From positions 2,842-66,841 of the forward strand of contig JAHEIW010000002.1 of the NCBI GenBank assembly GCA_024639185.1: a stretch of DNA of 64,000 bases, written 5' to 3'. This DNA comes from Deltaproteobacteria bacterium. GTDB taxonomy: Bacteria; Desulfobacterota; Desulfobacteria; Desulfobacterales; JAHEIW01. The notes under the pieces were generated by a model that saw nothing but the letters and a program-made list of their open reading frames with translations, had not been told where the DNA came from and did not search any database. The position numbers were made by a program, and so were the translations under genes. How positions within the stretch are numbered: position 1 is the stretch's first letter; every line of letters begins with the position of its first letter. This document shows positions 36,602-64,000 of this stretch, one piece after another.

Positions 36602-36617
36602 TGCATGATGTATGCCA
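36602..36617 (-). promoter_or_regulatory. Sigma-54 promoter upstream of cooS
   Basis: Minus-strand sequence TGGCATACATCATGCA, about 160 nt upstream of the cooS ATG. Confidence 0.7.
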
Positions 36618-36893
36618 TTAATCAAAGATGACAGCATATTATAAATATTCAGTAACTTAGAATATTATCTGATATAGAAAGAGAGGGTTGAGAATCTCAG
36701 ATTCGAAAAACTTCAAATTATTTTTCGCATAATTTCTAAGTTGATTTATCGAAGATTATAAAGGTTTGGTAAAAAGGTAAGATTTTCTTTGGATTTCCAC
36801 TGCGAAAAACAATCAATCATTTAGTGATGATATGTAACTACGTAAATTTTCATTCCTAAGGCTTTCCGATTTTCTATTGGCTTCGTCCAGAAA

Positions 36894-41742: not shown

Positions 41743-41779
41743 ATTTCGAAATTTTGCGAAAAAAATTTCGAAATTTTTC
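41743..41779. promoter_or_regulatory. Tandem palindromic candidate enhancer (UAS) sites AAATTTCGAAATTT x2
   Basis: aatttcgaaatttt (41743-41756) and aaatttcgaaattttt (41764-41779). The CG centres are 22 bp apart and lie 120 and 98 bp upstream of the GG of the sigma-54 promoter at 41867. Confidence 0.5.
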
Positions 41780-41866
41780 TAAATTTAAAATCCCATTAAT
41801 TTAAATTAAAGGCAAAAATTTAAATAACCCTTTAATTTTAAATAACTTTTCATTAGAACTCCGCAC

Positions 41867-41882
41867 TGGCATACTCCATGCT
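41867..41882 (+). promoter_or_regulatory. Sigma-54 promoter upstream of the hdrD-like / hybrid HK / EBP operon
   Basis: Plus-strand sequence TGGCATACTCCATGCT, about 165 nt upstream of the ATG at 42047. Confidence 0.7.
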
Positions 41883-42046
41883 TTGAAATAATCAATGAAA
41901 AATCCGTACCACCTTCACCTCCAAAGCAGCAATTTGTAAGACACAAATAAATTTTTGAAAGGGGTTCTGTACCGCTGTATTTTCAATAATGTGAGCCTGC
42001 CGTACAGTTTCGTTTAACCGATAAAAAACAAACCAAGGAGGCCCAA

Positions 42047-43354: not shown

Positions 43355-43368
43355 TACAAGAGAAACCC

Positions 43369-44916
43369 ATGAACACACCCACTAAATGGAAAGTCGTCTT
43401 AATCGATGACGAAGAAGACATTCGAGATGTCCTGGCCGTTGCGCTTCGGGATAGCGGGTATGATGTCATTGCGGCAGAAGATGGCGAAACCGGCTTACGG
43501 TTGTGTGAAGAGACATCCCCCCAAATTGTCGTTACCGATATCCGCATGCCGGGGATGGACGGTCTCCAAGTATTAGAGGTTTTGAAAAACAAGACCCCCG
43601 ATATAGAGGTCATTGTGGCCACTGCATTCGGGGAGATGGACGTGGCTATTCAGGCGCTGCAGCTCGATGCTTCGGATTTTATCACCAAGCCCATCAGCGA
43701 CGAAGCTTTGCATCTGGCACTGAAACGCGCCAAAGCCCGCTTTAGCTCGAAAAAGCAGCTTAGAGACTACACCGCTCTTTTGGAGCGCGAGAAGGCGGAG
43801 ACAAGTCAAGAACTTTTTAAAACCCTATCTTTCCAGAAAAATTTAATTGCGCACTCCATCGACGGCATCCTGGGATGTGACGAAAACAAGCGGGTCATCA
43901 TCTATAATAAAAGCATGGAAAAGATGCTGGGTTACGAGAGCAACGAAGTGTTGCACAAAATGACATTTAGCCATTTTTTATCGCCCGGCGAGGAGCTGAA
44001 CTTTATTGCCGAACTGGAAGATGAGCGTTACGGTGGCAAACACAAGCTACAACTTTATGAAACCACCCTGAAGGCAAAATCCGGCCGCAGGATTCCTGTA
44101 CAAGTATCGGCGACCCCCTTATTTGACCATGAAAACGTCAATGGTCTAGTTTGTTTTTTCAGAGATCTGCAGGAAACCCGAAAGCTAGAAAGAGAAATGG
44201 AGGATCAGGCGCGCATCCTGCATCAGGACAAAATGATGTCTTTAGGACGACTGGCTGCCAGTGTGGTTCACGAGATCAACAACCCGTTAGCGGGAATTTT
44301 AAATTATCTGCGGCTGATGCTCCGGATCCTGGATGAGGAGCAGCTGACAGAAGAGCGGGTGGAAAAATTTAAGCATTATTTAAAGCTGGTCGAAAATGAA
44401 ATCAATCGATGCGCACAGATTGTATCCAGCTTGCTCAATTTCTCGCGCGTATCTCCGCCGGCCTTTGGCGAAGTCCGGATTAAAGAGCTCGTCGAACGCT
44501 GTATCATTTTGAGCCAGCACAAGCTGGAACTGAGCAACATCCAGCTGAAATATAGCATCCAAAATGGCATCCCTGCTGTCCGGGGCGACTTCAACCAACT
44601 GCAGCAATGTATCATCAATCTCATATTCAATGCAATCGATGCCATGTCGGAGGGAGGAACGTTGACCCTGCAAGGACACCATGAATCTGCGACAGGAAAA
44701 GTGGTAATAGCCATAAAAGACACCGGTCAGGGTATTGCCCCTGATGCTCTTCCGTATATTTTTGAACCTTTTTTTACGACGAAAAGTCAAGCTTTTGGCG
44801 TAGGACTCGGCTTGTCGACGGTTTACGGCATTATCGAACGACACAACGGCAGTGTTGATGTCGACAGTCAACCTGGGAAAGGTGCCGTGTTTACGCTAAA
44901 AATACCGGTTCTTTGA
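43369..44916 (+). CDS. Hybrid response regulator / histidine kinase (REC-PAS-HisKA-HATPase)
   Basis: REC (VVLIDDEED...VVTDIRMPGMDG...ITKP), a PAS domain, H-box VVHEINNPLAGI, and G-boxes DTGQGI / GVGLGLS. Confidence 0.9.
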   Translation: MNTPTKWKVVLIDDEEDIRDVLAVALRDSGYDVIAAEDGETGLRLCEETSPQIVVTDIRMPGMDGLQVLEVLKNKTPDIEVIVATAFGEMDVAIQALQLDASDFITKPISDEALHLALKRAKARFSSKKQLRDYTALLEREKAETSQELFKTLSFQKNLIAHSIDGILGCDENKRVIIYNKSMEKMLGYESNEVLHKMTFSHFLSPGEELNFIAELEDERYGGKHKLQLYETTLKAKSGRRIPVQVSATPLFDHENVNGLVCFFRDLQETRKLEREMEDQARILHQDKMMSLGRLAASVVHEINNPLAGILNYLRLMLRILDEEQLTEERVEKFKHYLKLVENEINRCAQIVSSLLNFSRVSPPAFGEVRIKELVERCIILSQHKLELSNIQLKYSIQNGIPAVRGDFNQLQQCIINLIFNAIDAMSEGGTLTLQGHHESATGKVVIAIKDTGQGIAPDALPYIFEPFFTTKSQAFGVGLGLSTVYGIIERHNGSVDVDSQPGKGAVFTLKIPVL

Positions 44917-44937
44917 TCCGACCCGCGAGGATCTGAC

Positions 44938-46677
44938 ATGAATCATGCCACAAATCCAAAGAAAACCAGTGTCCGGTCTGATGAATGGCTTGAGATTCTG
45001 GATGAAATAAATGTCGGCGCTTTTACGGTCGACAACAACCGGCGGGTTGCGTCGATGAACCTGAATGCCCAGGCTTTAATCGGAATGAAAGAAAGTGAGG
45101 CCATCGGAAAAGACTGCCGCGAGGTGTTTGTCGGGGTCCCCTGTCTGGCAAGGTGTCCGTTTAGCGGTTCATCAGATTCGGATACCGAAGAGCCGGTTAT
45201 TCAAATCGAGGACGAAAATCAACAACCCCATTTCGTCACCCGCATGGCAACGCCGGTTTATGGACGGAACCAATCGGCGGCCGGTTGTCTGACGATATTG
45301 CAGGACCATTCACCGATTGCCGATCTGATAGACCGCATTCATTATGAGGAGCGCAGTCTGAAAATAATTCTGGACAACCTTGATGTCGGAATTTTCACCG
45401 TCGACCGCAGTGGTCATATCACTTTTTTTAATACCGAGGCAGAAAAGATTTCAGGCTACAATCGTCGCGACGTTTTGGGTCAATCGTGTACGACGCTGTT
45501 TGAAGGCAAGGGCGTCCGGGATTTGTGTTTATTAAAAGAGTCCATCATTGATGGCGAATCACGCAGCAGCCAGCAGGGTAAAATGATGACACGAGACGGC
45601 GTGACCATCCCCATCCGGGCCAACTACATGGCGCTTCGCAACGAGAAAGGCACGATTGTGGGCGGGTTGGCGACGTTTCATGACCTGACCCTGATACGAC
45701 AGTTTAAGCAGGCGATGCGCAATCGCTATACCTTCCATGATATGGTTGGCAAAAGCCCACTGATGCAAAAAATTTTCGGGATGGTCAATATTGTCGCCTC
45801 CACAGATGCCACCATTCTGATCGAAGGCACAACGGGAACCGGCAAAGACCTGCTGGCCAAGGTCATCCATTCAGCCAGTCACAGGGCGAATAAACCATTT
45901 GTCAAAGTGAATTGCGCCGCCATACCCGATAACCTGATCGAATCGGAGATGTTCGGTTATGTCAAAGGCGCGTTTACCGGGGCCGAAAGAGATAAGATCG
46001 GGCGGTTCCAGGAGGCTGAGGGCGGCACCATTCTTTTAGATGAGATTGGTGATCTACCGCTCCCCTTGCAAGCTAAGCTGCTGCGCGTTATCGAAGATAA
46101 GGAATTTTATCGTTTGGGCAGCCGGCATACGATTAAAGTCAATACCCGCATAATTTCGGCCACAAACCGCAATCTCGAAAAGCTGGTAAAAAACCGGCTT
46201 TTCAGAGAAGATCTTTATTACCGGCTGAACGTGTTCCGTATCGAAATACCTACTCTAAGAGAGCGGCAAGACGATCTACCCCTCTTGATCGGTCACATTT
46301 TAAGACGCCTGGTTGCCGCAGCGGGGCAGCGGCCACCGGAAGTATCTGAAACGGTAATGAAAATTCTGCTGAACTACACCTATCCCGGAAACGTCAGAGA
46401 ACTGGAAAATATTTTAGAGCACGCCCTGATCACCTGCCAGCACGATACCCTCGAAGAGCGACATCTTCCCGAATATCTCATAAGCCCCCAAACCGCACGC
46501 CGACCCGGGCTGCGCGAGAAACAACAGCGCCTTCCGATCCCAGACAATCTGGAGTGTGATGATATTCTGGCCGCCCTCAACCAACACAACTGGCACCGCA
46601 TCCGGACCGCCAGGGCTTTGGGAATGGACCGCACCACGCTCTGGCGTAAGATGAAGAAATTCGGCCTCAGTGATTGA
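44938..46677 (+). CDS. Sigma-54-dependent transcriptional activator with two PAS sensor domains and no receiver
   Basis: Walker A GTTGTGKD, exact GAFTGA loop, ESEMFGY, and a C-terminal HTH ([21 protein letters not shown]). The first PAS carries C60/C69/C73 ([16 protein letters not shown]). Confidence 0.92.
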
Positions 46678-46686
46678 GCTTTTTTT
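46665..46686 (+). terminator. Weak terminator-like hairpin plus T7 run at the end of the EBP gene
   Basis: cctca-gtgat-tgagc followed by ttttttt. The stem is only 4-5 bp. Confidence 0.25.
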
Positions 46687-46742
46687 ATATTCTGACATAA
46701 AGCACCGCTGAACCCAGTTAGTGCAGCATATGTTGCAGATTC

Positions 46743-46754
46743 TGTTGTACAACA
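46743..46754. promoter_or_regulatory. Perfect palindrome TGTTGTACAACA, a candidate UAS for the hdr operon promoter
   Basis: 12-bp perfect palindrome. Related sites are TGCAGCATATGTTGCA (46722-46737) and TGTTGTAAATAGTGCAACA (46817-46835). All lie 85-200 bp upstream of the promoter at 46921. Confidence 0.4.
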
Positions 46755-46920
46755 CCGCGTCTTTAACCAAATTCATTATATTTTATATACTTACAGAGAT
46801 TACGGCCCACGCATCGTGTTGTAAATAGTGCAACATCATTGCGAGCCCCCGTCCTCAAATCATGATCACCACTCCGCTAACCCTCTGTAATTAATATCAT
46901 AGCTTTTTATTCCGCTCACC

Positions 46921-46936
46921 TGGCATAGTCTATGCT
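46921..46936 (+). promoter_or_regulatory. Sigma-54 promoter upstream of the REC-hdr operon
   Basis: Plus-strand sequence TGGCATAGTCTATGCT, about 75 nt upstream of the ATG at 47012. Confidence 0.7.
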
Positions 46937-47011
46937 CTTACAGGGGCCAAGACCCTTTACCAGGCGTGCTGAGCTTACCCATCATAGCGTCAGCGTTTCA
47001 GAGGATTTTAA

Positions 47012-47455
47012 ATGTCAAATCCCGTTGAAAGAAAGAAAATTCTTGTCGTTGATGACGAGGCGGATATGCGGATCTTTCTGTGTAATCTGTTGGGTAATTG
47101 CGGATTCCAGCCCATCGGCGCCGCTGATCGCATCGAAGGGATCCAAAAAGCAAAAGAACAAAAGCCGGCCTTGATTATCCTGGATGTAATGATGCCGAAG
47201 GAAAGCGGGATTCTGATGTATCGCCAACTCCGAGAAGACAAGAACCTCAGGAAAGTGCCGGTCATCATGGTATCGACCATCGATAAAAAGATGTTTTCAC
47301 GATACCAGAAATTGCAAAGCAGACCTCAAAAAACGGCCGCCGCCGAACCGGGCGCCTACCTGGAAATGCCCCTGGAAACCGAAGAACTGGTTCGGCTGGT
47401 GCGCAAGATGACGTCAACCACAGCATATGATGCTGCAAGGAAACTTGACAAATAA
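47012..47455 (+). CDS. Single-domain response regulator (atypical: the conserved Lys is replaced)
   Basis: KILVVDDEADMR...ALIILDVMMPKESG...VIMVST, but YLEMPL where receivers have xxKP. Confidence 0.8.
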   Translation: MSNPVERKKILVVDDEADMRIFLCNLLGNCGFQPIGAADRIEGIQKAKEQKPALIILDVMMPKESGILMYRQLREDKNLRKVPVIMVSTIDKKMFSRYQKLQSRPQKTAAAEPGAYLEMPLETEELVRLVRKMTSTTAYDAARKLDK

Positions 47456-47479
47456 CAGGACGCAAGAGGCACAGCCATT

Positions 47480-50890: not shown

Positions 50891-50908
50891 AAAAACAAGG
50901 AGCGCCTT

Positions 50909-51331
50909 ATGCAAGATTTTGAACCGACGATTATTGCCTTTGTCTGTAACTGGTGCACATACACGGCAGCAGATCTGGCCGGCACCTCCAGGCTGACCTA
51001 TCCTAAAAATGTGCGTTTGATTCGGGTGATGTGCACCGGCATGGTGGATCCTCAGTACGTCATCAAAGCTTTTTTGGAGGGGGCCGACGGCGTGCTGATC
51101 AGTGGCTGTCATCCGGGTGACTGTCATTACATCAATGGCAATTATAAAGCCCGCCGGCGCATTAAGCTTTTAAAGGAAATTCTGCCCCAATTCGGTTTTG
51201 AGCCCGAGCGGCTTCGATTAACCTGGATCGGCGCCAGCGACGGGATTCAATTTGCCGAAATTATGGATGAACTTGTCGACCAGGTCAAGGCTTTGGGACC
51301 CAATCAGGCAAAGCTCAAAATGGTCATTTAA
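50909..51331 (+). CDS. mvhD: Methyl-viologen-reducing hydrogenase delta subunit homologue
   Basis: 140 aa. IIAFVCNWCTYTAADLAG...VMCTG...ISGCHPGDCHY, the MvhD [2Fe-2S] Cys pattern. Confidence 0.9.
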   Translation: MQDFEPTIIAFVCNWCTYTAADLAGTSRLTYPKNVRLIRVMCTGMVDPQYVIKAFLEGADGVLISGCHPGDCHYINGNYKARRRIKLLKEILPQFGFEPERLRLTWIGASDGIQFAEIMDELVDQVKALGPNQAKLKMVI

Positions 51332-51444
51332 CTTTGGGTAATGGATATTGGGTATTCGGTATTGGTGGCCTAACACAAAAAGATGCAAACAGCAAACAAC
51401 TCGTACCAAATACCCAGTACCGAAAATCAAAATTGGAGATACCG

Positions 51445-52590
51445 ATGTCGATTACGGGAAAAATCGAGGTGCAAGACAAAGATATTTTAGGAGCTTTGGG
51501 AGCGTTTTTTAAGCGCGTTTTGGAAACAGATGACATCAACGCCATTTTGGTGCCGCAGCATCTTTCAATGAAAAATATGGTTATGCCGACGCTGGTAACA
51601 GATCCCGAACAGCTCAATGGTGTAGATCCCCTAGCACCGGCATTTCCCATGAATGCCGCTAAAATTGTTTCGCGTCTGACCCGTAAACAGATGGGATCTA
51701 AAATTGCGGTGGTGTTGCGCCCCTGCGAAATCCGAGCCTTTGTTGAACTGGTCAAACTCAAGCAAGGTCAAATGGACGAAGTGATGCTCATCGGCATGGA
51801 TTGCCTGGGCGCATTTCAAAACAAAGATTACCTGCAATATGTTGACAGGCACGGGGACAAATCCACCGAGCGCTTCTATCAAGACGTTTTGGATGGGAAG
51901 CAGGCAGACATAGAAGGTGCTACTTTGGCTTCAGCGTGTATGTCTTGCGAAAATCCGGTGCCCACAAATGCAGACATCCTGATCGGTCTATTTGGCGTTG
52001 AGATCGCGGATTATCTGTTGGTACAATCGCAAAGCAAACGCGGAACAAATCTTTTAAATCAGATGCACATGACCGAAATCCCAGAACCAGCCTCACGCCA
52101 GGATGCCATCACCGCCATCGTTGCGCAGCGCATTGCCTGCCGAGATGAAATGTTTGTCAGAACACGCGCAGCTACCGATAGCCTGGAAAAAATGACGGCC
52201 TATCTGGCCAATTGCGTCAATTGTTATAACTGCCGGGTGGCATGCCCGGTGTGTTACTGCAAGGAATGTGTTTTTGTAACCGATGTGTTTAACCATGATC
52301 CGTCTCAATACTTGCGATGGGCCAATCGGAAAGGCGTCATTAAAATGCCAACCGATACGCTCTTTTTCCATCTGACCCGCTTGGCCCATATGAGCACGGC
52401 CTGTGTGGGGTGCGGCCAATGTTCAAATGCCTGTCCAAATGGTATTCCGGTGATGGAGCTCTTTCGCACCATATCACAAAGCACCCAGCGCGCATTTGAA
52501 TATGAGGCCGGAAAAAGCATCCAGCAGGAACCGCCCCTTTCGGTATTTTATGAGGATGAATTTCCAGAGGTGGTTGGCATCAACAGTTAG
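51445..52590 (+). CDS. FrhB/FdhB-like Fe-S flavoprotein (F420-hydrogenase beta-subunit-like N-domain plus 2x[4Fe-4S])
   Basis: IAVVLRPCEIRAFVEL resembles the FrhB_FdhB N-domain. Ferredoxin motifs CVNCYNCRVACP and CVGCGQCSNACP. ATG at 51445 with GGAGA 6 nt upstream. The track start at 51334 lies in a structured spacer. Confidence 0.72.
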   Translation: MSITGKIEVQDKDILGALGAFFKRVLETDDINAILVPQHLSMKNMVMPTLVTDPEQLNGVDPLAPAFPMNAAKIVSRLTRKQMGSKIAVVLRPCEIRAFVELVKLKQGQMDEVMLIGMDCLGAFQNKDYLQYVDRHGDKSTERFYQDVLDGKQADIEGATLASACMSCENPVPTNADILIGLFGVEIADYLLVQSQSKRGTNLLNQMHMTEIPEPASRQDAITAIVAQRIACRDEMFVRTRAATDSLEKMTAYLANCVNCYNCRVACPVCYCKECVFVTDVFNHDPSQYLRWANRKGVIKMPTDTLFFHLTRLAHMSTACVGCGQCSNACPNGIPVMELFRTISQSTQRAFEYEAGKSIQQEPPLSVFYEDEFPEVVGINS

Positions 52591-52628
52591 CAAATTATTT
52601 AATAAACCTATGAAAGCGGGTGTTGCAT

Positions 52629-55600
52629 ATGGCTAGAAAAATCGGCAAAGCGCTGGTCGTCGGTGCTGGTATCGCCGGTATAAGAGCTGCTTTGGATTTA
52701 GCAGAGTCCGGTTATGGCGTCATTCTGATTGATAAGTCCCCGCATATAGGCGGGATCTTAAGCCAGCTCGATTACCAGTTCCCCACCGACCATTGCGGGA
52801 TGTGCAAAATGCTTCCGCTGGTGGACCGGGATGCCAGTTCGCAGTATTGTCTGCGCAAGGGTCTGTTTCATGAAAACATCGACATTACGTTATCCACAGA
52901 GCTTGTTTCCATCAAAGGAGAACCCGGCCAATTTCAGGTGATGCTGAAAGAACATCCGAACTGGGTGACCTCAGATCTTTGCACAGGCTGTGGCGAATGC
53001 GTTGACGCTTGTCCGATTGAGGTTCCGGATGAATTCAATTCCGGCCTGGGAACCCGTAAAGCAATTTATCTGCCGATACCCCATGCCATTCCAAATCCCT
53101 ATGTCATTGATTACACTGTGTGCACCCGCTGCGGTGCATGCGAAGAGATGTGCCCGACAGGCGCCATTAAAATTCCCGAAAAGGCCCGCGGGGACTTCCG
53201 CATTTTAGTTGTGGATGATGAACTGATCGTACGCGATTCATTAAAAGAATGGCTTGCGGAAGAGGGTTTTGCAGTCGATATGGCTGCATCCGGTCAGGAA
53301 GCGATAGAACAATTGTCTCAACAGACCTACCAGCTGATGCTTTTAGACTTAAAAATGCCCGAAATGGATGGTGTTGAGGTCTTGCAAAAAACCATTGATG
53401 AATTTCCCGATCTGGATGTCGTCATGATGACCGCCTACGCAACCGTGGAAACCGCTGTCGAAGCCATGAAAATCGGGGCCCTGGATTATCTGGTAAAGCC
53501 TTTTGATCCGGAAACCCTGATCCCCATGGTCAAACGCTTATATCAAGAGCGGGCTGCCTCTGAAGGTCGCCAGATTGAAGTTGGCGCAGTCGTGTTGTGC
53601 GGGGGCACCGCTTTTTTTGATCCGGCCAGCGGCAAAAATACGTTTGGTTATGGAATATTTCCCAACGTCGTCACCCACCTGGAATTCGAGCGGCTTTTAA
53701 GCGGTACCGGTCCTTATCACGGACAGCTTGTCAGACTGGGCGACGGCCAAGCGCTCCAAAAAATTGCCTGGATCCAATGTGTCGGTTCCAGAGACCTGCA
53801 GCTGGAAGCCGATTACTGTTCCAACATCTGCTGCATGGCAGCGATCAAGCAAGCACTGGTGGCCAAACAAAAGGCCCGCGGAAATTTAGATACAACCATT
53901 TTTTACATGGACATGCGCACCTTTGGAAAATCCTTCGAACGCTACCGGCAGCAGGCCGAGGCAAAACATGGCGTTCGGCTCAAAAGGGCGCGGATTCATA
54001 CGGTGGACCGGCATGCCGCTTGCGGCGATTTGATTCTGCGCGGCGTGGATCTGGCAGGACAATCCAGCGAAGAACGTTTCGACATGGTGGTTCTGACTGT
54101 CGGTCAACGGCCGATCGGTGGCGCAAATGACCTATCCGAATTGGCAGGAATAGAGCTAAATTCACTTGGTTTCGCGCAAACCGAAGCTTTTTCGTTAACG
54201 CGGTCCTCACGAAGCGGAATTGAACTGGGGGGATCATTTACGGGTCTAAAGGATATCAGTGATTCTGTTGTACAAGCGTCTGCCGCCGCTTTAAATGCCT
54301 CACGAATTCTGCATGCCGCCGGCGGCAGTCTGGCCCTAAAGTCCTCGTCATTCATACCATCGACCGATGTGCTGCGAGAAGTCCCCCGGATCCTGGTGAT
54401 CGTTTGTACCTGCGGTGTTCGGCTCCCGGCAGCCGTCGACACCCAAAAAGTCATCGAACAGCTCACGGCTGATCCGCTGGTTGATGGCGTCGATTTTGTC
54501 GAGCAAACCTGTACGGCCGCTGGATGGGAACATCTTGAAAAACGGGTCGCTGAAAGCAAACCAAATCGGATCCTGATCGGATCCTGCCTGCCATATGTCT
54601 ATAAGCGCAAGATTAAAGATCTCGGCCAGCGAATCGGTCTGAATCCGAGCCTCATCGACGTGGTCGATCTTGCATCTGAGTACCAGAAACACGTTTTAGA
54701 AAAAGAGCCCAAGGAGTTTATTACCCAAAATGTAACTTCCAAACTGGAGATGGGCATCGCCAGGCTAAAATGGATTGAACCGTCAGCACCCCCGGACATT
54801 CCGGTCATCCAGCGGGCACTGGTGATCGGTGGCGGCGTTGCCGGTATGACGGCCGCTTTGGCAATCGCCGATCATGGTTTTCAGGTGGATCTGGTGGAAC
54901 AAAATGATCGATTGGGTGGCAACCTCAACTGGTTGGAGCGAACGCTGGATGGGCACCAGCCCACAGAGTTGCTGCAACAAACGCGTACATCCGTAGAAAA
55001 ACATCCTCAAATACAGGTGCATACCCAAACGCGTGTGGTGCGCTCAACAGGCGAAGTAGGCCACTTTCAGACCACCATAACCGATGCGCAAAACACTGAG
55101 CAAACCCTGGATCATGCGGTCACCATATTGGCGACCGGTGGCAGGGAGGCCGCGACCTCCGCTTATGGGTACGGGACAAGCCCGGTCATTGTCACACAGA
55201 AGGAACTGGAAGAAAAACTGTCAAACCAACCATTGGATGCCACCCAATTACATTCAATCGCCATGATCCAGTGTGTGGATTCGCGCGAGGAGCCCCGAAA
55301 TTATTGCAGCCGCGTATGTTGCGCGAATGCTTTAAAGCACGCCCTGCACCTGAAAGAAATAAATCCTGACATTCAAATTTATATTCTCTATCGGGATATG
55401 ATGACCTACGGCTTTGACGAATCCTATTATACCCGGGCCCGCAAGGCCAACGTGATCTTCATCCAATATCAATTCACTGAAAAACCGCAGGTCATGGCTA
55501 ATCAAGAAAGTGTGCGCGTAACCGTCATTGATTCCATTATAAATAGGCCCATACAAATCGAGGCGGATCTTCTGGTGCTGGCCACCGGCATCATTCCCAA

Positions 55601-56054
55601 TCTGCCGACCCAGCTGGCTGAAACCTTCGGCGCCTCTGTGGATGAGGACGGCTTTTTTCAGGAGGCCGACAGCAAGTGGCGGCCGGTGGATTCACTCAAA
55701 GAAGGCGTTTTTGCCTGTGGCTTGGCCCACTCGCCGCGCAACATTGCCGAATCGATTACGACTGCCGAGGCAGCCGCCCAGCGTACGCTTAGAATATTAG
55801 GGCATGAGCGTCTGTCGGCGGGAAAGGTGGTCGCCAATGTTCATCATAGCCTTTGCAGTTTATGTGAACGCTGTATTGATGCCTGTCCTTATCGGGCCCG
55901 CAGCATTGATATGGATCAAGACAGAGTGCTGGTGAATCCGGCCATGTGCCAGGGATGCGGCTCCTGTGCCGCCATTTGCCCCAATGGGGCTTCGGTCCTG
56001 GAAGGATTTTTGGAACAACAAATGCTGGAAATGATCGACGCGGCCATCGGTTAG
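52629..56054 (+). CDS. hdrA: Tandem HdrA-like flavoprotein with an embedded CheY-like receiver domain (REC at about 53200-53575)
   Basis: Module 1: ALVVGAGIAGIRAALDLA, ferredoxin insert CTGCGECVDACP/CTRCGACEEMCP, then RILVVDDELIVRD...LMLLDLKMPEMDG...VVMMTAYA...YLVKPF, then IQCVGSRD...YCSNICCMA. Module 2: HdrA N-domain (ILVIVCTCGVRL...LIGSCLPY), ALVIGGGVAGMTAALAIA, IQCVDSRE...YCSRVCCAN, and a C-terminal 2x[4Fe-4S]. Confidence 0.9.
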   Translation: MARKIGKALVVGAGIAGIRAALDLAESGYGVILIDKSPHIGGILSQLDYQFPTDHCGMCKMLPLVDRDASSQYCLRKGLFHENIDITLSTELVSIKGEPGQFQVMLKEHPNWVTSDLCTGCGECVDACPIEVPDEFNSGLGTRKAIYLPIPHAIPNPYVIDYTVCTRCGACEEMCPTGAIKIPEKARGDFRILVVDDELIVRDSLKEWLAEEGFAVDMAASGQEAIEQLSQQTYQLMLLDLKMPEMDGVEVLQKTIDEFPDLDVVMMTAYATVETAVEAMKIGALDYLVKPFDPETLIPMVKRLYQERAASEGRQIEVGAVVLCGGTAFFDPASGKNTFGYGIFPNVVTHLEFERLLSGTGPYHGQLVRLGDGQALQKIAWIQCVGSRDLQLEADYCSNICCMAAIKQALVAKQKARGNLDTTIFYMDMRTFGKSFERYRQQAEAKHGVRLKRARIHTVDRHAACGDLILRGVDLAGQSSEERFDMVVLTVGQRPIGGANDLSELAGIELNSLGFAQTEAFSLTRSSRSGIELGGSFTGLKDISDSVVQASAAALNASRILHAAGGSLALKSSSFIPSTDVLREVPRILVIVCTCGVRLPAAVDTQKVIEQLTADPLVDGVDFVEQTCTAAGWEHLEKRVAESKPNRILIGSCLPYVYKRKIKDLGQRIGLNPSLIDVVDLASEYQKHVLEKEPKEFITQNVTSKLEMGIARLKWIEPSAPPDIPVIQRALVIGGGVAGMTAALAIADHGFQVDLVEQNDRLGGNLNWLERTLDGHQPTELLQQTRTSVEKHPQIQVHTQTRVVRSTGEVGHFQTTITDAQNTEQTLDHAVTILATGGREAATSAYGYGTSPVIVTQKELEEKLSNQPLDATQLHSIAMIQCVDSREEPRNYCSRVCCANALKHALHLKEINPDIQIYILYRDMMTYGFDESYYTRARKANVIFIQYQFTEKPQVMANQESVRVTVIDSIINRPIQIEADLLVLATGIIPNLPTQLAETFGASVDEDGFFQEADSKWRPVDSLKEGVFACGLAHSPRNIAESITTAEAAAQRTLRILGHERLSAGKVVANVHHSLCSLCERCIDACPYRARSIDMDQDRVLVNPAMCQGCGSCAAICPNGASVLEGFLEQQMLEMIDAAIG

Positions 56055-57649: not shown

Positions 57650-59956
57650 ATGCTCAACTATATATCCAAAATACGACACAGTTTAATTTCGAAACTAATT
57701 GTTTCCGTAGGCCTGGTGCTGTTGCTGTCTTTGGCAGTCTGGGCTTACTTCAACACCAATTATCAGAAAAACAAGTTTATGGCAGACATTATCTGCAGTA
57801 CGGACAGATTGACGAATACCATCCGGTTGGGTGCGCACTATGCCATGATGCTGAATTCACGCGATGACATCAATCAAATTATTCAAAATATCAGCAAGCA
57901 AAGGGAAATCGAAAATATTCGGATTTATAACAAGGAAGGAAAGATAAAATTTTCAAATGAATTAGCGGAAGTCGACAATACCACCAATATCGAAGCCGAA
58001 GCCTGTTATATCTGTCACCGTTCAGAACCACCTCTGTCAGAAGTGAGTCTGAATCAACGGACACGGATATTTAATTCTCCGAAGGGGTATCGGCTGCTGG
58101 GCATCATCAGCCCGATCCGCAACGAGCCAGGGTGTTCCACCGATGCCTGTCACGTGCACCCCAGGGGCAAACAAATTTTGGGTGCGCTGGATCTGGTGGT
58201 TTCGCTGAAGGATACCGATAAGGAAATCTTAAAAGCACAAAAAGGCATGATGGGACTGAGCGCATTTTTGTTTTTGCTGACTTCTGCCATCATCTTCATA
58301 TGTGTTTTGCGATTCGTCAACCGGCCAATCAAGAAATTAATCAATGGCACCCAAGAAATCGCAATCGGTAACTATCTGGACAAGGTGGCTGTCGATCAGG
58401 ATGATGAAATGAGTCAGCTGGCTGGGGCCATCAATCAAATGAGTGATGAAATTGCTAAAAAGCAGCTGGAACTGAACAAACAAAGAGACGAATATCAAAC
58501 ATTGTTTGAACGCGTGCCGTGCTTGATTACGGTTCAAGATAAAAATTTCAAGTTGTTAAGATATAATCGCGAATTTTTTGAACGCTTTGCCCCGCAGTCT
58601 GAGGATTTCTGCTTTCATGCTTACAAAGGCCGAGACGAAAAATGTGTCAATTGCCCGGTTGAAAAAACCTTTGAAGATGGTTTGCCCCACTATGGCGAAG
58701 AGACAGGGGTGTGCAAGGATGGCAGTATGACCTACTGGATCGTCAGAACGTCTCCGATTCTAAATGCCAGCGGTGAAATTGTGGCGGCAATGGAGATGAG
58801 CCTGGACATTACCGAAAGAAAACAACTTGAAGAAAAATTAAAGGCATCTGAGAAAAAATATCATGACATTTTCAACAATATGCCAAACCCGGTTTTCGTT
58901 TTGGATATGGATTCACTTGTAATTCTTGATTGCAATGCGAGTGTTAAGACCGTCTATGGTCATGACAAAGCGGAAACGCTTAATCGCTCCTTTTTAGAAC
59001 TATTTTATGAAGCTGATCGAAACAAATATGCATCTGAAATAAAGCAATCTGAAGTGATCAACCAAGTCAAACAGCGAACTCGGACAGGCAAAACAGTTTT
59101 TGTCAACATTCGGGTGTCACCGTGGAGCTATCAGGGCAAAGACGTATTGCTGGTCACTACCAGCGACATCACCAAGCGGCTTGAAACCGAGCAACAGCTC
59201 ATTCAGGCCAGCAAAATGGCAACTTTGGGAGAAATGGCAACCGGCGTTGCCCACGAACTCAACCAGCCGCTTTCGGTGATCAAAACCGCCAGCAGTTTTT
59301 CCATTAAGAAACTTGAGAAAAATGAGCCGATCGAATTCGAAATTCTGTCTAAGATCTTATTAAAAATAGATAGCAATGTTGATCGTGCTACACGTATCAT
59401 TAACCATATGCGACAGTTCGCCCGTAAATCAGATATGGACCTGGAAAGGGTATACGTCAACGATGTATTGAAAAATGCCTTTGAAATTTTCAGCCAGCAG
59501 TTGAAGTTACGCGGAATTGAAGTGCAGTGGCAGCTTGAGACAAACCTCCCACAAATTTATGCCGACCCCGGCCGTTTGGAACAGGTATTCATAAATCTTT
59601 TGCTAAATGCCAGAGACGCCATTGAAGCAAAATGGAATTACGCGGATGCCAAGCAGGAAAACAAAAAGATTACGCTGAAAACGATGCGTAACAGCCAAAC
59701 CGTTATCTGCGAGGTTTGTGACACGGGAATAGGCGTTCCGGAAGCCATCACCGATAAAATTTTTGAACCCTTTTTTACCACCAAGGAGGTCGGTAACGGC
59801 ACCGGGTTGGGATTAGCCATCAGTTACGGGATCATCAAAGACTGCGGCGGCAGTATACAGGTTGGGTCAAACAAACCAAACGGGGCGTGCTTTATCCTAA
59901 AATTTCCGATTCCGGAAACAACAGATGAAAATGAAAAAGAAAATATTACTCGTTGA
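57650..59956 (+). CDS. Sensor histidine kinase with a periplasmic domain carrying c-type haem-binding motifs, HAMP, 2 PAS, HisKA and HATPase
   Basis: TM1 at about aa 15-34 and TM2 at about aa 203-220. The periplasmic domain has CYICH (CxxCH, nt 58004-58018) and CSTDACH (Cx4CH, nt 58133-58153). H-box [12 protein letters not shown]-boxes DTGIGV / GTGLGLA. Confidence 0.9.
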
Positions 59957-61091
59957 TGACGAGAAAGATATCCGCGACGTTCTGTATTTACCCCTGACGG
60001 ATATGGGATATGAGGTCTTTATGGCCGAAGATGGCAACGAGGCACTACGCGTATTTGAAGAAGCGCAACCGTCGATTGTACTGACCGATATAAAAATGCC
60101 CGGAATGGATGGCATTGAATTGTTACAGCAAATCAAACGTGAAAACCCTGAGACCGAAGTGGTTATGATAACCGGCCATGGCGATATGGATCTGGCCATC
60201 AAAAGTTTGAAATATGAAGCCACCGATTTTATCACCAAGCCGATTAATGTGAATGCCCTGGAAATAGCGCTACAGCGAGTTCGCGAACGCATCCTGACCC
60301 GACAACAATTAAGAGAATATACCGAAAACCTGGAAAGACTGATTCGCAAAAAAACAGAATTGCAAGATCATCTCTCATCATTGGGGCTGATGATCAGTTC
60401 AATATCTCACGGAATAAAAGGGTTACTAACCGGCTTGGACGGCGGAATGTATATCCTTGAGAGGGGATTTACACAAAAAAACCAAGATCAGATCACAGAG
60501 GGATGGGAGGTTGTCAAACAAATGGTTGAACGCGTCCGTAAGATGGTTCTGGATATTCTTTATTACGCTAAAGAACGGGATCTGAAATGGGAGCGAATCG
60601 ATGCTTTGAGCTTTGCAGAAGAAGTCGCCAGGGTCGTTGAACCGAAAATACAGTCTCAATCGATCGCGTTTGAAACTAGTTTTGATTCAGCAACCGGAGA
60701 ATTTGAAATTAATGCAGGTTATGTTCATTCAGCAATCCTGAATATTCTGGAAAATGCAGTGGATGCGTGCTGTAGAGACAAGTCAAAACAGAAGCATAAA
60801 ATTACCTTAAAGGTAAGCCAGGATAAAGGTCACATCATATTTGATATTGCTGACAATGGAATTGGAATGGATAGTGAAACCAGCGAAAAAATATTTACGC
60901 CTTTTTTCTCTTTAAAAGGAGAGGAGGGAACCGGTTTAGGCCTTTTTATTTCAAACAAAATCGTCGAGCAACACGGCGGTGAAATAATTGTAAAATCAAA
61001 ATTACGGCAAGGGACCGCGTTTAGAATTAAATTACCCAAAATGCAGTCCCAATCCGCCCCGGCGCCCGAAGCTTCCGCCCTGGCTGGATAA
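59925..61091 (+). CDS. Hybrid response regulator / histidine kinase (REC plus HK core)
   Basis: [13 protein letters not shown]...IVLTDIKMPGMDG...FITKP. H-box-like ISSISHGIKGLLTG. G-boxes DNGIGM / GTGLGLF. Overlaps the preceding gene by 32 nt. Confidence 0.85.
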   Translation: MKMKKKILLVDDEKDIRDVLYLPLTDMGYEVFMAEDGNEALRVFEEAQPSIVLTDIKMPGMDGIELLQQIKRENPETEVVMITGHGDMDLAIKSLKYEATDFITKPINVNALEIALQRVRERILTRQQLREYTENLERLIRKKTELQDHLSSLGLMISSISHGIKGLLTGLDGGMYILERGFTQKNQDQITEGWEVVKQMVERVRKMVLDILYYAKERDLKWERIDALSFAEEVARVVEPKIQSQSIAFETSFDSATGEFEINAGYVHSAILNILENAVDACCRDKSKQKHKITLKVSQDKGHIIFDIADNGIGMDSETSEKIFTPFFSLKGEEGTGLGLFISNKIVEQHGGEIIVKSKLRQGTAFRIKLPKMQSQSAPAPEASALAG

Positions 61092-61294
61092 ACATCACCC
61101 TGGTTCTATATGGATCAGCCGTAAAATAATATCATGAACAGGCCACTCAAATTATGCACATTTTGCTCCCATCATGCCTAAACGGCTGTCTTGGGAGCAC
61201 CCAGTCGCCTTTTGAACCTAAAAAGGCGTATACGATATCGTGAATTTTTTCTTTGAGAAAAATTGACTAAATGACCGGCGAAGGAGGAATAAAA

Positions 61295-61609
61295 ATGAAT
61301 AAGCCGCTTAAATATATGGTGGTCCATGATGACCCGCACATTCCATGGGAGAAGGTTGAAGAGAACTGGGCCAAACTGGCCAATGTCGAACACGCCACCT
61401 GGGTCCGAACCTGTTACAACAAGGAAAAAGGTGTTCGCTATTGTGTTTGGTTGGCACCGAATGAAAAGGTGTTGGCTACGATATTTGATGAGCTTCATAT
61501 CTCATACGAGTCTATCATTGAAGTCGAAGAAACTGTTCCCGATCTGTGGGGTAAGAAATGGCAGGAACATCTGAAGGCTGAAGCAACAGCGGACACACTT
61601 GGTTTCTAA
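61295..61609 (+). CDS. DUF4242-like small protein
   Basis: MNKPLKYMVVHDDP...VRYCVWLAPNEKVLATIFDE resembles the SCO4226/DUF4242 pattern (from memory). Strong RBS GAAGGAGGA lies before the ATG at 61295. Confidence 0.55.
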   Translation: MNKPLKYMVVHDDPHIPWEKVEENWAKLANVEHATWVRTCYNKEKGVRYCVWLAPNEKVLATIFDELHISYESIIEVEETVPDLWGKKWQEHLKAEATADTLGF

Positions 61610-61669
61610 TGGCACTACCCAGTAACTTGCTCAACACTAAACCCATGGGTGTTGTCAAATGGTGATTCT

Positions 61670-61690
61670 GCCCGGCATGAATTGCCGGGC
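61670..61690 (+). terminator. GC-rich hairpin downstream of the DUF4242-like gene (non-canonical terminator candidate)
   Basis: gcccggca-tgaat-tgccgggc, an 8-bp perfect stem. There is no adjacent T-run. Confidence 0.3.
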
Positions 61691-61845
61691 GGGTCACGAC
61701 TTTAAAAAAATATGAAGCGCCTGAGATGTATTGATCGAAGGCATTAGTCTTTCTACAGCATTTTATCAATCGAATTCGAACCCTTAACAAACGATGGTCT
61801 CATAACAATCCTCAACGCTTCATCGCAAAACATGTCAGAGGAGGA

Positions 61846-62163
61846 ATGATGAACATCGATCATTTGATATCAAGTTTCGAGTTTGACAAATCCAGAAGCG
61901 ATTGTCTGATACATGATTTTTTGAAGACATATATTAAAATGAAATCGCATCTATCCATTTGTGAAAATAATGAAGCTGACAGGTTTAAAAAGCAATTAAA
62001 TAATTATTCAGATAATCTAGAGCAATTACTAGAATGCGCTATGTGTTTTCCTTCAGGCTGTAAAAACTGTGTTGGTATGCAAAAATGCATCGATTGTATC
62101 AATCAGGATAATTTGGCATCCTCATTTGTTAAACTAAAGCGCTATATGGAAAACCAAACGTGA
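61846..62163 (+). CDS. Small Cys-rich hypothetical protein (105 aa)
   Basis: RBS GAGGAGGA. C-terminal cluster CAMCFPSGCKNCVGMQKCIDC. Confidence 0.5.
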   Translation: MMNIDHLISSFEFDKSRSDCLIHDFLKTYIKMKSHLSICENNEADRFKKQLNNYSDNLEQLLECAMCFPSGCKNCVGMQKCIDCINQDNLASSFVKLKRYMENQT

Positions 62164-62216
62164 GGCTGCCTTTGACTTTTGAGAAAATTGGCAAACGATA
62201 GTCAATAATTGATGTC

Positions 62217-63302
62217 ATGTCTAACAACAAACAATTGTCGTATGGTACGTTGGCGACGACTCGCAAAATTTGGGGGCGAGATTCAAATCAGATCCTCGAC
62301 CTTCTACCCAGTTCCTTATCCATTCAGGATTCCGAATTTCGTATCGTATTTTATAACCAAAATTTTAAAAAAAACTTTGGTGATGCGCTCGGCCGGCGAT
62401 GCTACTCGGTTTATAAGGGCTCAGATAATATCTGTCCCTTCTGTCCTGTCAAAGAAAGCTTTGGCGATAAACGCATTCACATTCGAGAAGAAACCGTTAA
62501 ACTCCTCAATGGAAAGTGTTGCCAGATGCTCATACAAACGTCCCCCATTGTGAATGCGTATGGTGAGGTAACGGCCGTCATCGACATGGCCACCAACATC
62601 ACGCAGGTCAAAACAGATCGCAAAGAACTGGCCACCCTGGGTCAATCGATTGCGCAGTTATCTCACGGTATTAAAAACATACTGGAAGGATTGCAAGGCG
62701 GCGCCTATGTTGTTGATGAAGGCTTAAAGGATGCGGATTTGAATCTCATCGAGAAAGGGTGGAATATTGTCAACAAAAATATTTTTGAGGTAACCGATTT
62801 TGTAAAAAATATACTGCATTCATCCAAAAGACCCCGCCTTAGATTTGAAATGGCATCACCCGGCCAACTGGTGAAAGACTCAGTCGCATTATTTAAAGAA
62901 AAAGGCAGCGGCTTGCAAATTCGCCTCAGAGAACAGGTCAATCCATATCTGCCCGAAGTTTCGGTTGATACTGCCGGGCTTCGCAGAGTGTTAAACAATC
63001 TGATCTGGAATGCTATGGAAGCCTGCATGAACGATAAACTTAAAAAGAACCATTTTGTCAGTGTAAAAACAGATTTCTATGATGATGATCATTTTATGTT
63101 CGAAATAACGGATAACGGCATCGGAATGGATCAAGCCACCCAGCAAAAAATTTTTGATGATTTTTTTTCAACCAAAGGAAGCAGCGGTACCGGGCTCGGT
63201 CTGGCGGTGGTGGATAAGATCATCAACATGCACGGCGGTAAAATTGAAGTGACTTCAAAGCAGGGAAAGGGCACTAAATTCACAGTTATCCTGAAAATAT
63301 AG
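62217..63302 (+). CDS. Cytoplasmic PAS histidine kinase
   Basis: PAS with CYSVYKGSDNICPFCP. H-box-like IAQLSHGIKNILEG. G-boxes DNGIGM / GTGLGLA. Confidence 0.85.
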   Translation: MSNNKQLSYGTLATTRKIWGRDSNQILDLLPSSLSIQDSEFRIVFYNQNFKKNFGDALGRRCYSVYKGSDNICPFCPVKESFGDKRIHIREETVKLLNGKCCQMLIQTSPIVNAYGEVTAVIDMATNITQVKTDRKELATLGQSIAQLSHGIKNILEGLQGGAYVVDEGLKDADLNLIEKGWNIVNKNIFEVTDFVKNILHSSKRPRLRFEMASPGQLVKDSVALFKEKGSGLQIRLREQVNPYLPEVSVDTAGLRRVLNNLIWNAMEACMNDKLKKNHFVSVKTDFYDDDHFMFEITDNGIGMDQATQQKIFDDFFSTKGSSGTGLGLAVVDKIINMHGGKIEVTSKQGKGTKFTVILKI

Positions 63303-63358
63303 TAACCGCATCCGAATGAGATGAGTCCAGTTCTGAAATGACCAAAAAGGAGATAAAC

Positions 63359-63829
63359 ATGGCAAAAAGTCATAAAATCGTCATTGTCGATGATAATACC
63401 GACTTCCTTTTTACCATGCATACCTTTCTAAGAAGAAATGGCTTCGTAGTATTCACTGCCGATGATGGTCAAAAAGGAATAAAATTAATCCGTAAAGAAC
63501 GGCCCGACGTGATCCTGTTGGATATCATGATGGAAACCTTGTTTTCTGGATTTGAGGTTTTTATGCAGATACGGTCCGATAATGCGCTGAAGAATATTCC
63601 GATTATTGGTATTTCCGCCATGAGAGATGCATTGGACATCGACTACAGCCAATGGCCGGATTATGAGTATTTCAGTCCGGACACATTTTTAGATAAACCC
63701 GTTGACAGACAACGATTGCTGCGGATGATTCCGGAAGTGATCCGAAAAGCCAAAAAGCGTAAACGCCGGCCAAAATGGCAAAAGAAAATGGAACAGGATT
63801 GGGCGAACAAGGCTTCCCAATCGCAGTGA
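63359..63829 (+). CDS. Single-domain response regulator with a basic C-terminal tail
   Basis: KIVIVDDNTDF...VILLDIMME...IIGISA...FLDKP. RBS GGAGA lies before the ATG at 63359. The tail is KAKKRKRRPKWQKK. Confidence 0.85.
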   Translation: MAKSHKIVIVDDNTDFLFTMHTFLRRNGFVVFTADDGQKGIKLIRKERPDVILLDIMMETLFSGFEVFMQIRSDNALKNIPIIGISAMRDALDIDYSQWPDYEYFSPDTFLDKPVDRQRLLRMIPEVIRKAKKRKRRPKWQKKMEQDWANKASQSQ

Positions 63830-63956
63830 TGCGCATCGCATGCCCCGCCAGCATTCCTATCGCTATGCCCTCCTGAAATAAGCAGAATTCCCTTTTCCTT
63901 CTTTATTCATTCCGTCGTAAAACAATCTAAGCTGAAGCCATAAGAGGATTTTGAGA

Positions 63957-64000
63957 TGCATCCAATTTATCTGTTGGCTGCTGGTTTTCGAAAATCTTCA
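63957..64000 (+). CDS. Start of an unidentified ORF running off the window
   Basis: ATG at 63957 is preceded by AAGAGGA. Only 14 codons are visible (MHPIYLLAAGFRKS). Confidence 0.2.

Follow-up and report, generated by a model that had tools for sequence, protein, structure and literature searches.

A receiver domain inside an HdrA-like flavoprotein as the candidate target of a haem-motif kinase network beside sigma-54-type hdr promoters

We analyzed a 64,000-nucleotide (nt) stretch of a Deltaproteobacteria bacterium contig (JAHEIW010000002.1; this whole stretch is referred to below as the window), following up an earlier note on the sensor kinase and receiver genes that lie at 57650-63829, downstream of an hdr operon. 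Our reading of the locus, to which we would give only slightly less than an even chance on the sequence evidence, is that transcription of the hdr genes is under sigma-54 control and that a kinase network acts, in addition, on the Hdr enzyme at the protein level. The HdrA-like protein of the operon contains a canonical receiver (REC) domain, and an enzyme-directed signal that passes through this receiver is plausible. The more specific proposal, that a redox-sensing kinase network phosphorylates the HdrA receiver beside a mobile ferredoxin insert and thereby switches electron flow post-translationally, should be considered possible and rather more tentative. The proteins at the center of this reading are listed here, with domains called by Pfam at E<=0.01 in a scan of 26 proteins of the window.

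52620..56054, + strand: tandem HdrA-like flavoprotein with an internal REC (REC-HdrA below), from Pfam and from phmmer comparison with the PDB.
57650..59956, + strand: membrane histidine kinase of 768 amino acids (aa), the haem kinase below, from Pfam and motif conservation.
59925..61091, + strand: REC-kinase, with an N-terminal REC, a DHp (SISHGIKG) and HATPase_c, from Pfam.

REC-HdrA matches the HdrA structures 8rvu and 5odc with phmmer E values of 1e-120 or better, in four stretches that make up two HdrA-like halves. Residues 9-187 align with HdrA 152-320, which covers the start of the flavin adenine dinucleotide (FAD) fold and the inserted 2x[4Fe-4S] ferredoxin domain, the REC occupies residues 194-310, and the alignment resumes with residues 315-511 at HdrA 323-517. 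As the alignment breaks at HdrA 320 and 323, the REC is spliced in at the exact return from the ferredoxin insert. In the second half, residues 586-760 align with HdrA 9-181 and residues 965-1143 with HdrA 476-653. The thioredoxin-reductase-like FAD fold, the inserted 2x[4Fe-4S] ferredoxin domain and the C-terminal ferredoxin domain of HdrA are all present, while the NCBIfam HdrA2/HdrA scores fall below the equivalog cut-offs and the protein is therefore described as HdrA-like rather than as an orthologue of the methanogen enzyme. The N-terminal domain is absent from the first half and opens the second; the two-half fusion may mimic the methanogen HdrA dimer within a single chain.

The receiver, which the earlier note had already placed inside HdrA, was recovered by Pfam at aa 195-304 (approximately nt 53202-53531) and has the full set of residues used in phosphorylation, namely the acidic pair, the acceptor Asp, Thr/Ser, the aromatic switch residue and Lys. 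In an alignment in which overall identity goes down to 49%, D199, D200, D243, T271, Y290 and K293 are the same in 119/119 sequences, and PF00072 is found in each of the 120 best REC-HdrA protein clusters (120/120). One can propose that the HdrA REC is a structural pseudo-receiver, serving dimerisation or docking and never phosphorylated, with the kinases signalling among themselves and to the single-domain receivers. Indeed, an unphosphorylated REC fold is known from DVU0749, where the acceptor Asp is replaced by Gly (PMC3333781), and some REC-HdrA loci have no kinase nearby. However, active-site residues are usually lost in such domains, whereas the DD, D, T, Y and K of HdrA are invariant throughout the alignment; losses do occur in the free receiver at the head of the operon (REC_47012, see below), in contrast to the HdrA REC. 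The pseudo-receiver explanation is thus regarded as improbable.

Helix alpha1 of the HdrA REC has a conservation of 0.87, the highest of the four receivers of the locus (0.65-0.74 in the others), and in the DHp helix of the haem kinase the 9 residues that follow the His are invariant (11 of the first 12). Together these conserved surfaces point to kinase docking, although in a manner that is suggestive only. Covariation between kinase DHp and receiver alpha1, tried over ~90 loci as a predictor of partners, was abandoned, as there is hardly any variation at the interface among the orthologues of each group.

REC-HdrA homologues number in the thousands, with more than 590 matching stretches in species-representative genomes, of which the best 80 were examined; these 80 belong to Desulfobacterales, Syntrophobacteraceae and relatives. 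For forward synteny, all window proteins were compared by tblastn with the REC-HdrA loci, and only loci with at least 6.5 kb of downstream sequence were counted (n=58). Orthologues of the haem kinase were found in 43/58 (57-72% identity), of the REC-kinase in 40/58 and of both in 38/58, nearly always directly after REC-HdrA or HdrCB. For reverse synteny, a metagenome collection was searched with the sensor half of the haem kinase, and at least 5.5 kb of upstream sequence was required (n=36). In this direction, 32 of the 36 haem kinase loci carry REC-HdrA, its REC region included, and the REC-kinase adjoins the haem kinase in 50/61 metagenome loci. The co-occurrence of these kinases with REC-HdrA, which the earlier note had suggested as a check, is thus seen from both sides (43/58 forward and 32/36 reverse). 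Gene order is shuffled between lineages, with HdrCB standing before or after HdrA, while the set is kept; such persistence of a set through varying order is the pattern expected of a functional unit.

The haem kinase is built of a transmembrane segment, a periplasmic PAS/PDC-like domain, a second transmembrane segment, HAMP, two PAS domains, HisKA (AHELNQPL) and HATPase_c. Its hydrophobic segments, at ~aa 12-34 (preceded by K/R residues) and ~aa 199-223, enclose a loop of 165 residues that contains two haem-c motifs, CYICH (aa 119-123, CXXCH) and CSTDACH (aa 162-168, CX4CH). Both motifs are present in 38/46 haem kinase orthologues, with the spacing fixed at ~43 residues. The predicted model of the loop shows a long helix and a five-stranded sheet in PAS/PDC topology (pLDDT 64); low confidence at the haem regions is expected, as the cofactor is absent from the model. 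In Foldseek, the model comes closest to WalK, KinD and CitA, in each case to the extracellular PAS/PDC domain. Sixth in rank is 3b42, the haem-c sensor of GSU0935, which is a weak match (TM-score 0.36-0.44) to a model of pLDDT 64, and a PDB sequence search with the periplasmic domain gave chance-level matches only. PF21563 scores 21.9 bits on the window protein, below the cut-off of 27, and is precomputed for many of its orthologues. Some orthologues are short, at 482-544 aa (loci L021, L023, L024, L040, L052 and L072), and still adjoin REC-HdrA; five of them lack CXXCH and, as judged by length, the periplasmic domain. In the comparison of haem motifs, the periplasmic part is missing from six orthologues of 497-544 aa.

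On the cytoplasmic side, four Cys residues are invariant in the first PAS domain (PAS1) of the haem kinase, namely C291, C321, C332 and C335 (nt 58520-58654). The C-x10-C-x2-C-P pattern of this domain is repeated at aa ~62-85 of the PAS kinase at 62217, and a looser version, C-x8-C-x3-C-P, occurs at aa ~60-73 in PAS1 of a transcriptional activator at 44938 (both proteins are listed below). The motif, recurrent as it is in three PAS proteins, may provide them with a redox-sensing site of a shared type (metal or Fe-S), and a common cytoplasmic redox or metal signal may thus be read.

The REC-kinase gene starts exactly 32 nt inside the haem kinase gene, and its D11, D12, D55, T83, K105 and H162 are conserved in an alignment of ~40 orthologues. 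Upstream, the gap from hdrB to the haem kinase is 86 nt and has no predicted terminator on the + strand; the haem kinase may be co-transcribed with the hdr genes, which run in the order REC_47012, HdrL-like (47480), MvhD, FrhB-like, REC-HdrA, HdrC and HdrB.

The regulators that precede and surround this operon bear on the main alternative to an enzyme-directed signal:

37575-38963, - strand: NtrC-type regulator, REC-Sigma54_activat-HTH_8 (PF00158 E 2e-63, PF02954).
38970-41648, - strand: dCache-HAMP-PAS kinase (Pfam).
42047-43354, + strand: HdrC-like (Fer4) and short HdrB-like (CCG, 131 aa) genes, part of the operon 42047-46677.
43369..44916, + strand: REC-PAS-kinase, a hybrid REC-PAS-HisKA-HATPase_c (Pfam).
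44938..46677, + strand: sigma-54 enhancer-binding protein (EBP) of 579 aa, PAS-PAS-Sigma54_activat-AAA_lid-HTH_8 (Pfam, NCBIfam).
47012..47455, + strand: REC_47012, a single-domain receiver and the first gene of the hdr operon (Pfam).

The EBP is recognized with PF00158 at E 1e-70 and PF02954 at E 9e-13, its translation contains a Walker A motif and GAFTGA, and its NCBIfam matches are PrdR/NifA/NorR-like; it has no REC. It shares the operon 42047-46677 with the HdrC-like gene, the HdrB-like gene and the REC-PAS-kinase, which ends 22 nt upstream of it. The NtrC-type regulator gene starts 7 nt after the dCache kinase gene, and the two form a classical pair. In total, five kinases and two sigma-54 activators are encoded in the hdr neighborhood, together with six REC domains, counting those of HdrA and of the NtrC-type regulator. 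The earlier note had counted four kinases and three free or hybrid receivers, and had stated that no HTH or AAA+ output is found in the neighborhood; these counts are too low, and the statement does not hold, as the EBP at 44938-46677 lies between the very genes that it cited (43369 and 47012) and the regulator at 37575-38963(-) is a second case. What it said of the cluster itself fared better: the genes that it listed, the overlap of 32 nt and the haem motif agree with the open reading frame coordinates, Pfam and motif conservation, and the six proteins of 57650-63829 are all free of HTH, AAA+ and Hpt domains by Pfam. The H-box His and HATPase_c are present in all of 57650, 59925, 62217 and 43369, and none of the REC proteins 59925, 63338, 47012 and 43369 has a DNA-binding output domain by Pfam (E<=0.01). 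Looked at as a classical two-component system, the locus provides the kinases, and a DNA-binding receiver is found only in 37575-38963(-), which is paired with the dCache kinase.

The same genes recur upstream of REC-HdrA in other genomes: the EBP in 16/38 and the REC-PAS-kinase in 18/38 fully flanked loci, and REC_47012 in 23/46. In the orthologues of REC_47012, Lys is kept in 28/32 and the acceptor Asp in 26/32; the protein has an insertion of ~20 residues between beta4 and beta5. The HdrC-like and short HdrB-like genes lie 10 kb upstream in the window and directly before REC-HdrA in several relatives (L004, L010, L015, L024, L025, L029, L046 and L077), where they sometimes replace the downstream HdrCB, which suggests that they encode alternative partner subunits.

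The promoters and upstream elements of these operons are as follows:

46920..46936, + strand: sigma-54 -24/-12 box CTGGCATAGTCTATGCT, 76 nt upstream of REC_47012 and the hdr operon.
46730..46836, no strand assigned: upstream activator sites ATGTTGCA-N5-TGTTGTACAACA (46730-46754) and TGTTGTAAATAGTGCAACAT (46817-46836), from palindrome matches.
41748..41882, + strand: 32-nt element GAAATTTTGCGAAAAAAATTTCGAAATTTTTC at 41748, followed 87 nt downstream by a sigma-54 box at 41866-41882, in front of the 42047 operon.
36602..36736, - strand: second copy of the 32-nt element at 36705-36736, followed by a sigma-54 box at 36602-36617, from a pattern search.

The strict consensus TGGCAC-N5-TTGC, with one mismatch allowed, gave no match near hdr, the actual boxes being TGGCAT-N5-ATGC. 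Near-identical boxes, CTGGCATAnTCnATGCT, occur in the window at 41866-41882 and 46920-46936 only (0.18 expected). A box like that at 46920 is found upstream of REC_47012 orthologues in 11/31 related loci, compared with a background of 0.023 per kb, and in 10 of these 11 loci, as well as in the window, the box is preceded at 100-200 nt by TGTTGCA / TGTTG[CT]GCAACA palindromes. Palindromes of the TGTTGCA type are absent at the 41866 box, which together with its 32-nt element is kept in the closest genome relative (L009). The second copy of the 32-nt element is identical to the first at 27/32 positions, stands 88 nt from its box and fronts a gene of the prismane/carbon monoxide dehydrogenase (CODH) family at 34410-36440(-); the gene of the NtrC-type regulator (37575-38963) sits between the two promoters that carry this element. 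On the basis of these patterns, the palindromes and the 32-nt element are predicted activator sites for sigma-54 EBPs.

With such elements in place, the kinases may be thought to act on transcription only, with the haem kinase signalling to the hybrid RECs and/or REC_47012, and these to the EBP by contact, in the manner of NifL and NifA; hdr expression would then be set at the sigma-54 promoter, with the HdrA REC serving as a side acceptor or a phosphate sink. The EBP, with its GAFTGA and HTH_8, follows the REC-PAS-kinase by 22 nt and is adjacent to it in many loci, it stands directly after the haem kinase in some (L162, L137 and L150), the sigma-54 box and enhancer at the hdr operon are conserved, and there is a precedent in Desulfovibrio vulgaris, where the sigma-54 regulator DVU2394 controls the adh/hdr operon (PMC3333781). 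Nonetheless, the EBP has no REC and so offers no direct path for phosphotransfer, a purely transcriptional role gives no reason for HdrA REC residues that are invariant in 119/119 sequences, and it leaves unexplained a kinase/receiver pair that precedes Hdr-like operons without a sigma-54 box. We consider this alternative unlikely, though it deserves more weight than the pseudo-receiver explanation.

The pair in question closes the sensor cluster, which comprises six + strand genes by open reading frame reading and Pfam. Besides the two kinases described above, these are:

61271..61609, + strand: SCO4226-like small protein (PF14026, formerly DUF4242, E 1.9e-14).
61846..62163, + strand: Cys-rich protein of 105 aa (translation).
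62217..63302, + strand: cytoplasmic PAS histidine kinase, PAS and HATPase_c, H-box LSHGIKN (Pfam).
63338..63829, + strand: REC_63338, a single-domain receiver (Pfam).

In alignment, REC_63338 has the DD, D62, S and K residues and an insertion between beta4 and beta5. Its C-terminal tail is strongly basic (KRKRRPKWQK..DWA.KASQS) and is kept in L164 (9167-9658), L166 (9142-9618) and L167 (9253-9729). The PAS kinase and REC_63338 follow the core kinase pair in L164 and L166, as they do in the window. In L167, L169 and L170, they lie on the same strand 15-363 nt before a different Hdr-like operon, with genes for a membrane subunit (NarI/Fer4), a CCG protein, a tandem HdrA and an FrhB-like protein, and no sigma-54 box was found at these three loci. 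The pair is thus, from its genomic distribution, a mobile accessory in its behavior. The paralogous tandem HdrA of L167 (12358-15408) has an in-frame TGA (...NDCAM*I..., likely selenocysteine) and no REC; L169 (12916-15969) and L170 (12511-15564) show the same split of the HdrA gene into 59-aa and ~900-aa parts, the absence of a REC having been read in L167 only.

The last REC gene ends only 171 nt from the window end, and the flank beyond it was judged from the relatives L164 and L166, of which L164 is the best available proxy. This matters for a further explanation, that the adjacency is incidental and the kinases pair with DNA-binding regulators elsewhere or beyond the window end, with no link to Hdr. 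Orphan kinases and regulators are plentiful in deltaproteobacteria, with 109 kinases in Desulfobacterium autotrophicum (PMC2702500), and the nearness of the window end favors this explanation too. However, the haem kinase and REC-kinase show reciprocal synteny with REC-HdrA in more than 100 loci and in several orders, which persists despite the shuffling, in L164 the ~5 kb that follow the terminal REC contain no regulator gene, and the gap between hdrB and the haem kinase is short and has no predicted + strand terminator. Incidental adjacency is therefore considered very improbable.

The two small genes of the cluster are less widespread. The SCO4226-like gene, whose true start is likely the ATG at 61295 (preceded by GGAGGA), follows the REC-kinase in close relatives only (L015, L085-L087, L107, L113 and L128), and orthologues of the Cys-rich gene were found in L071 and L110 only. 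The Cys-rich protein has three CxxC-type pairs near its C-terminus (C-x2-C-x4-C-x2-C-x5-C-x2-C); it matches no significant Pfam family (DUF7496 is sub-threshold only), and the NCBIfam scan gave no match. In the 236-nt gap between these two genes, 61660-61700 forms a G+C-rich hairpin, GCCCGGCA-TGAA-TTGCCGGGC, which lacks a T tract and was not picked up by terminator prediction. The G+C content of 57650-64000 is 0.42-0.45, like that of the upstream flank, compared with 0.49-0.55 in 42001-56000, which holds the hdr and regulator operons.

Taken as a mechanism, the enzyme-directed reading would run as follows. The haem kinase would read the periplasm through its PAS-like domain with two c-type haem motifs and the cytoplasm through its four-Cys PAS domain, and would be translationally coupled to the REC-kinase. 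With the REC-PAS-kinase and REC_47012, these two kinases would form a branched network, whose most probable end point is the canonical receiver in the tandem HdrA, right after the inserted ferredoxin domain; through phosphorylation of HdrA, the electron flow of the Hdr-like complex would be tuned at the protein level. The accessory PAS kinase and the basic-tailed REC would also act on Hdr-type complexes, probably through protein-protein contact. In parallel, the EBP at 44938 would drive the sigma-54 promoter of the hdr operon, and the dCache kinase with the NtrC-type regulator would probably act at the two promoters with the 32-nt element, namely those of the EBP operon and of the prismane gene, giving a two-tier cascade from the NtrC-type regulator to EBP expression and on to the hdr operon. 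Which kinase phosphorylates which receiver, and what this does to the enzyme, we infer from sequence.

The earlier note had proposed a phosphorelay that ends on the enzyme itself, and this should be divided into two parts. A search for Hpt (PF01627) or Spo0B-like phosphotransferases gave no Hpt match among the 26 proteins scanned, so a true His-Asp-His-Asp phosphorelay is not what the locus encodes; the hybrid kinases also carry their REC at the N-terminus, rather than at the C-terminus as is typical of relay kinases. The HdrA REC as a kinase target, on the other hand, is favored by synteny, by the residues conserved in 119/119 sequences and by the lack of a DNA-binding output in all conserved receivers of the locus.

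Several points weigh against this target and should be considered together. The first acceptor that one would expect for the haem kinase is the REC of the REC-kinase that overlaps it, rather than that of HdrA. In 15/58 REC-HdrA loci, including that of Desulfonema magnum, for which the genome is complete, the kinase pair is not found locally. The conservation of alpha1 in the HdrA REC could come from intramolecular packing instead of kinase docking, and the window copy of REC_47012, which would belong to the network, has Met at the position of the conserved receiver Lys. The REC is present in 82/82 genome loci of the REC-HdrA clade, and no REC-less orthologue of the clade, which would serve as a negative control, was found among them. 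Finally, as an EBP and a sigma-54 promoter belong to the locus itself, a purely transcriptional role of the kinases, via the EBP or REC_47012, is possible.

Response regulators that carry an enzymatic output in cis include the CheB methylesterase, PleD and WspR (GGDEF), RpfG (HD-GYP) and RssB. Similar to CheB, PleD, WspR and RpfG, REC-HdrA joins a canonical REC and an enzyme in one polypeptide, an arrangement in which catalysis can be controlled without transcription. Unlike in these proteins, the REC is not N-terminal and is inserted in the thioredoxin-reductase-like fold of a multi-cluster flavoprotein, and its output would be electron transfer or bifurcation. In the NifL-NifA system, a PAS/GHKL sensor protein controls a REC-less sigma-54 activator by direct binding. 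The window likewise has a PAS-containing kinase-like gene immediately upstream of a REC-less sigma-54 EBP, although in the kinase at 43369 the H-box is normal and a REC is present at the N-terminus, and the input of the EBP is PAS and not GAF. Multi-kinase networks with single-domain receivers are also found in development or the cell cycle, as in RedCDEF of Myxococcus and DivJ/PleC/DivK of Caulobacter. These resemble the network proposed here in combining several kinases, REC-kinase hybrids and free receivers, with no DNA-binding domain and an output through protein contacts; they differ in that the window network is physically tied to a redox-enzyme operon.

Among systems described in the literature, the closest for transcription is the sigma-54 two-component system DVU2394/DVU2395, which regulates the adh/hdr-flox operon of Desulfovibrio vulgaris (PMC3333781, PMC4641369). 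It shares with the window a sensor kinase, a sigma-54 activator and a sigma-54 promoter beside an hdr-type operon in a sulfate reducer. DVU2394 is, however, a classical REC-AAA+-HTH protein, whereas the window EBP takes PAS input and lacks a REC; in D. vulgaris, one-component EBPs of the PAS type are frequent (PMC4641369). A further difference from D. vulgaris is that the conserved kinases of the window come with output-less receivers only, and that HdrA itself carries a REC. PAS-like periplasmic sensors with haem c are known from the Geobacter chemoreceptors GSU0582/GSU0935 (PDB 3b42, PF21563; PMC3460858), and haem-c Cache domains have been described (PMC12889525). The window sensor is similar to GSU0582/GSU0935 in placing a periplasmic PAS/Cache-like domain with CXXCH between two membrane helices, and differs from these chemoreceptors in belonging to a histidine kinase and in having a second CX3-4CH motif. 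For the enzyme, hdr locus VIII of D. autotrophicum HRM2 reads hdrL-mvhD-fdhB-hdrA4-hdrCB (PMC2702500), and the window agrees with it in structural gene order: HdrL with a GltD-like part, MvhD, FdhB/FrhB-like, HdrA, HdrC and HdrB. A histidine kinase, a response regulator and a CheY-like regulator are drawn at the D. autotrophicum hdr loci, with the locus unspecified and without comment; that paper describes no receiver domain in HdrA and does not discuss the signalling genes (PMC2702500). Our literature search, which had incomplete coverage of subscription journals, revealed no description of a receiver inside HdrA or of kinases dedicated to it. Sigma-54 control of hdr genes and haem-c periplasmic sensors are thus already known, while the REC-HdrA fusion with its kinases is apparently undescribed.

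In sulfate reducers and syntrophs, Hdr-like complexes have a central place in energy conservation and, as the REC-HdrA clade is widespread, any mechanism found for it would apply to an ecologically important group. The proposed two-tier sigma-54 cascade, with defined enhancers before hdr, provides concrete candidate regulatory sites. If the enzyme-directed reading is true, redox or electron-bifurcating flavoproteins would form a new class of response-regulator output and REC-HdrA would be the first phospho-regulated enzyme of the electron-bifurcation type, and phospho-mimic and phospho-ablative mutants of D243 would then give a handle on when Hdr complexes are switched on.

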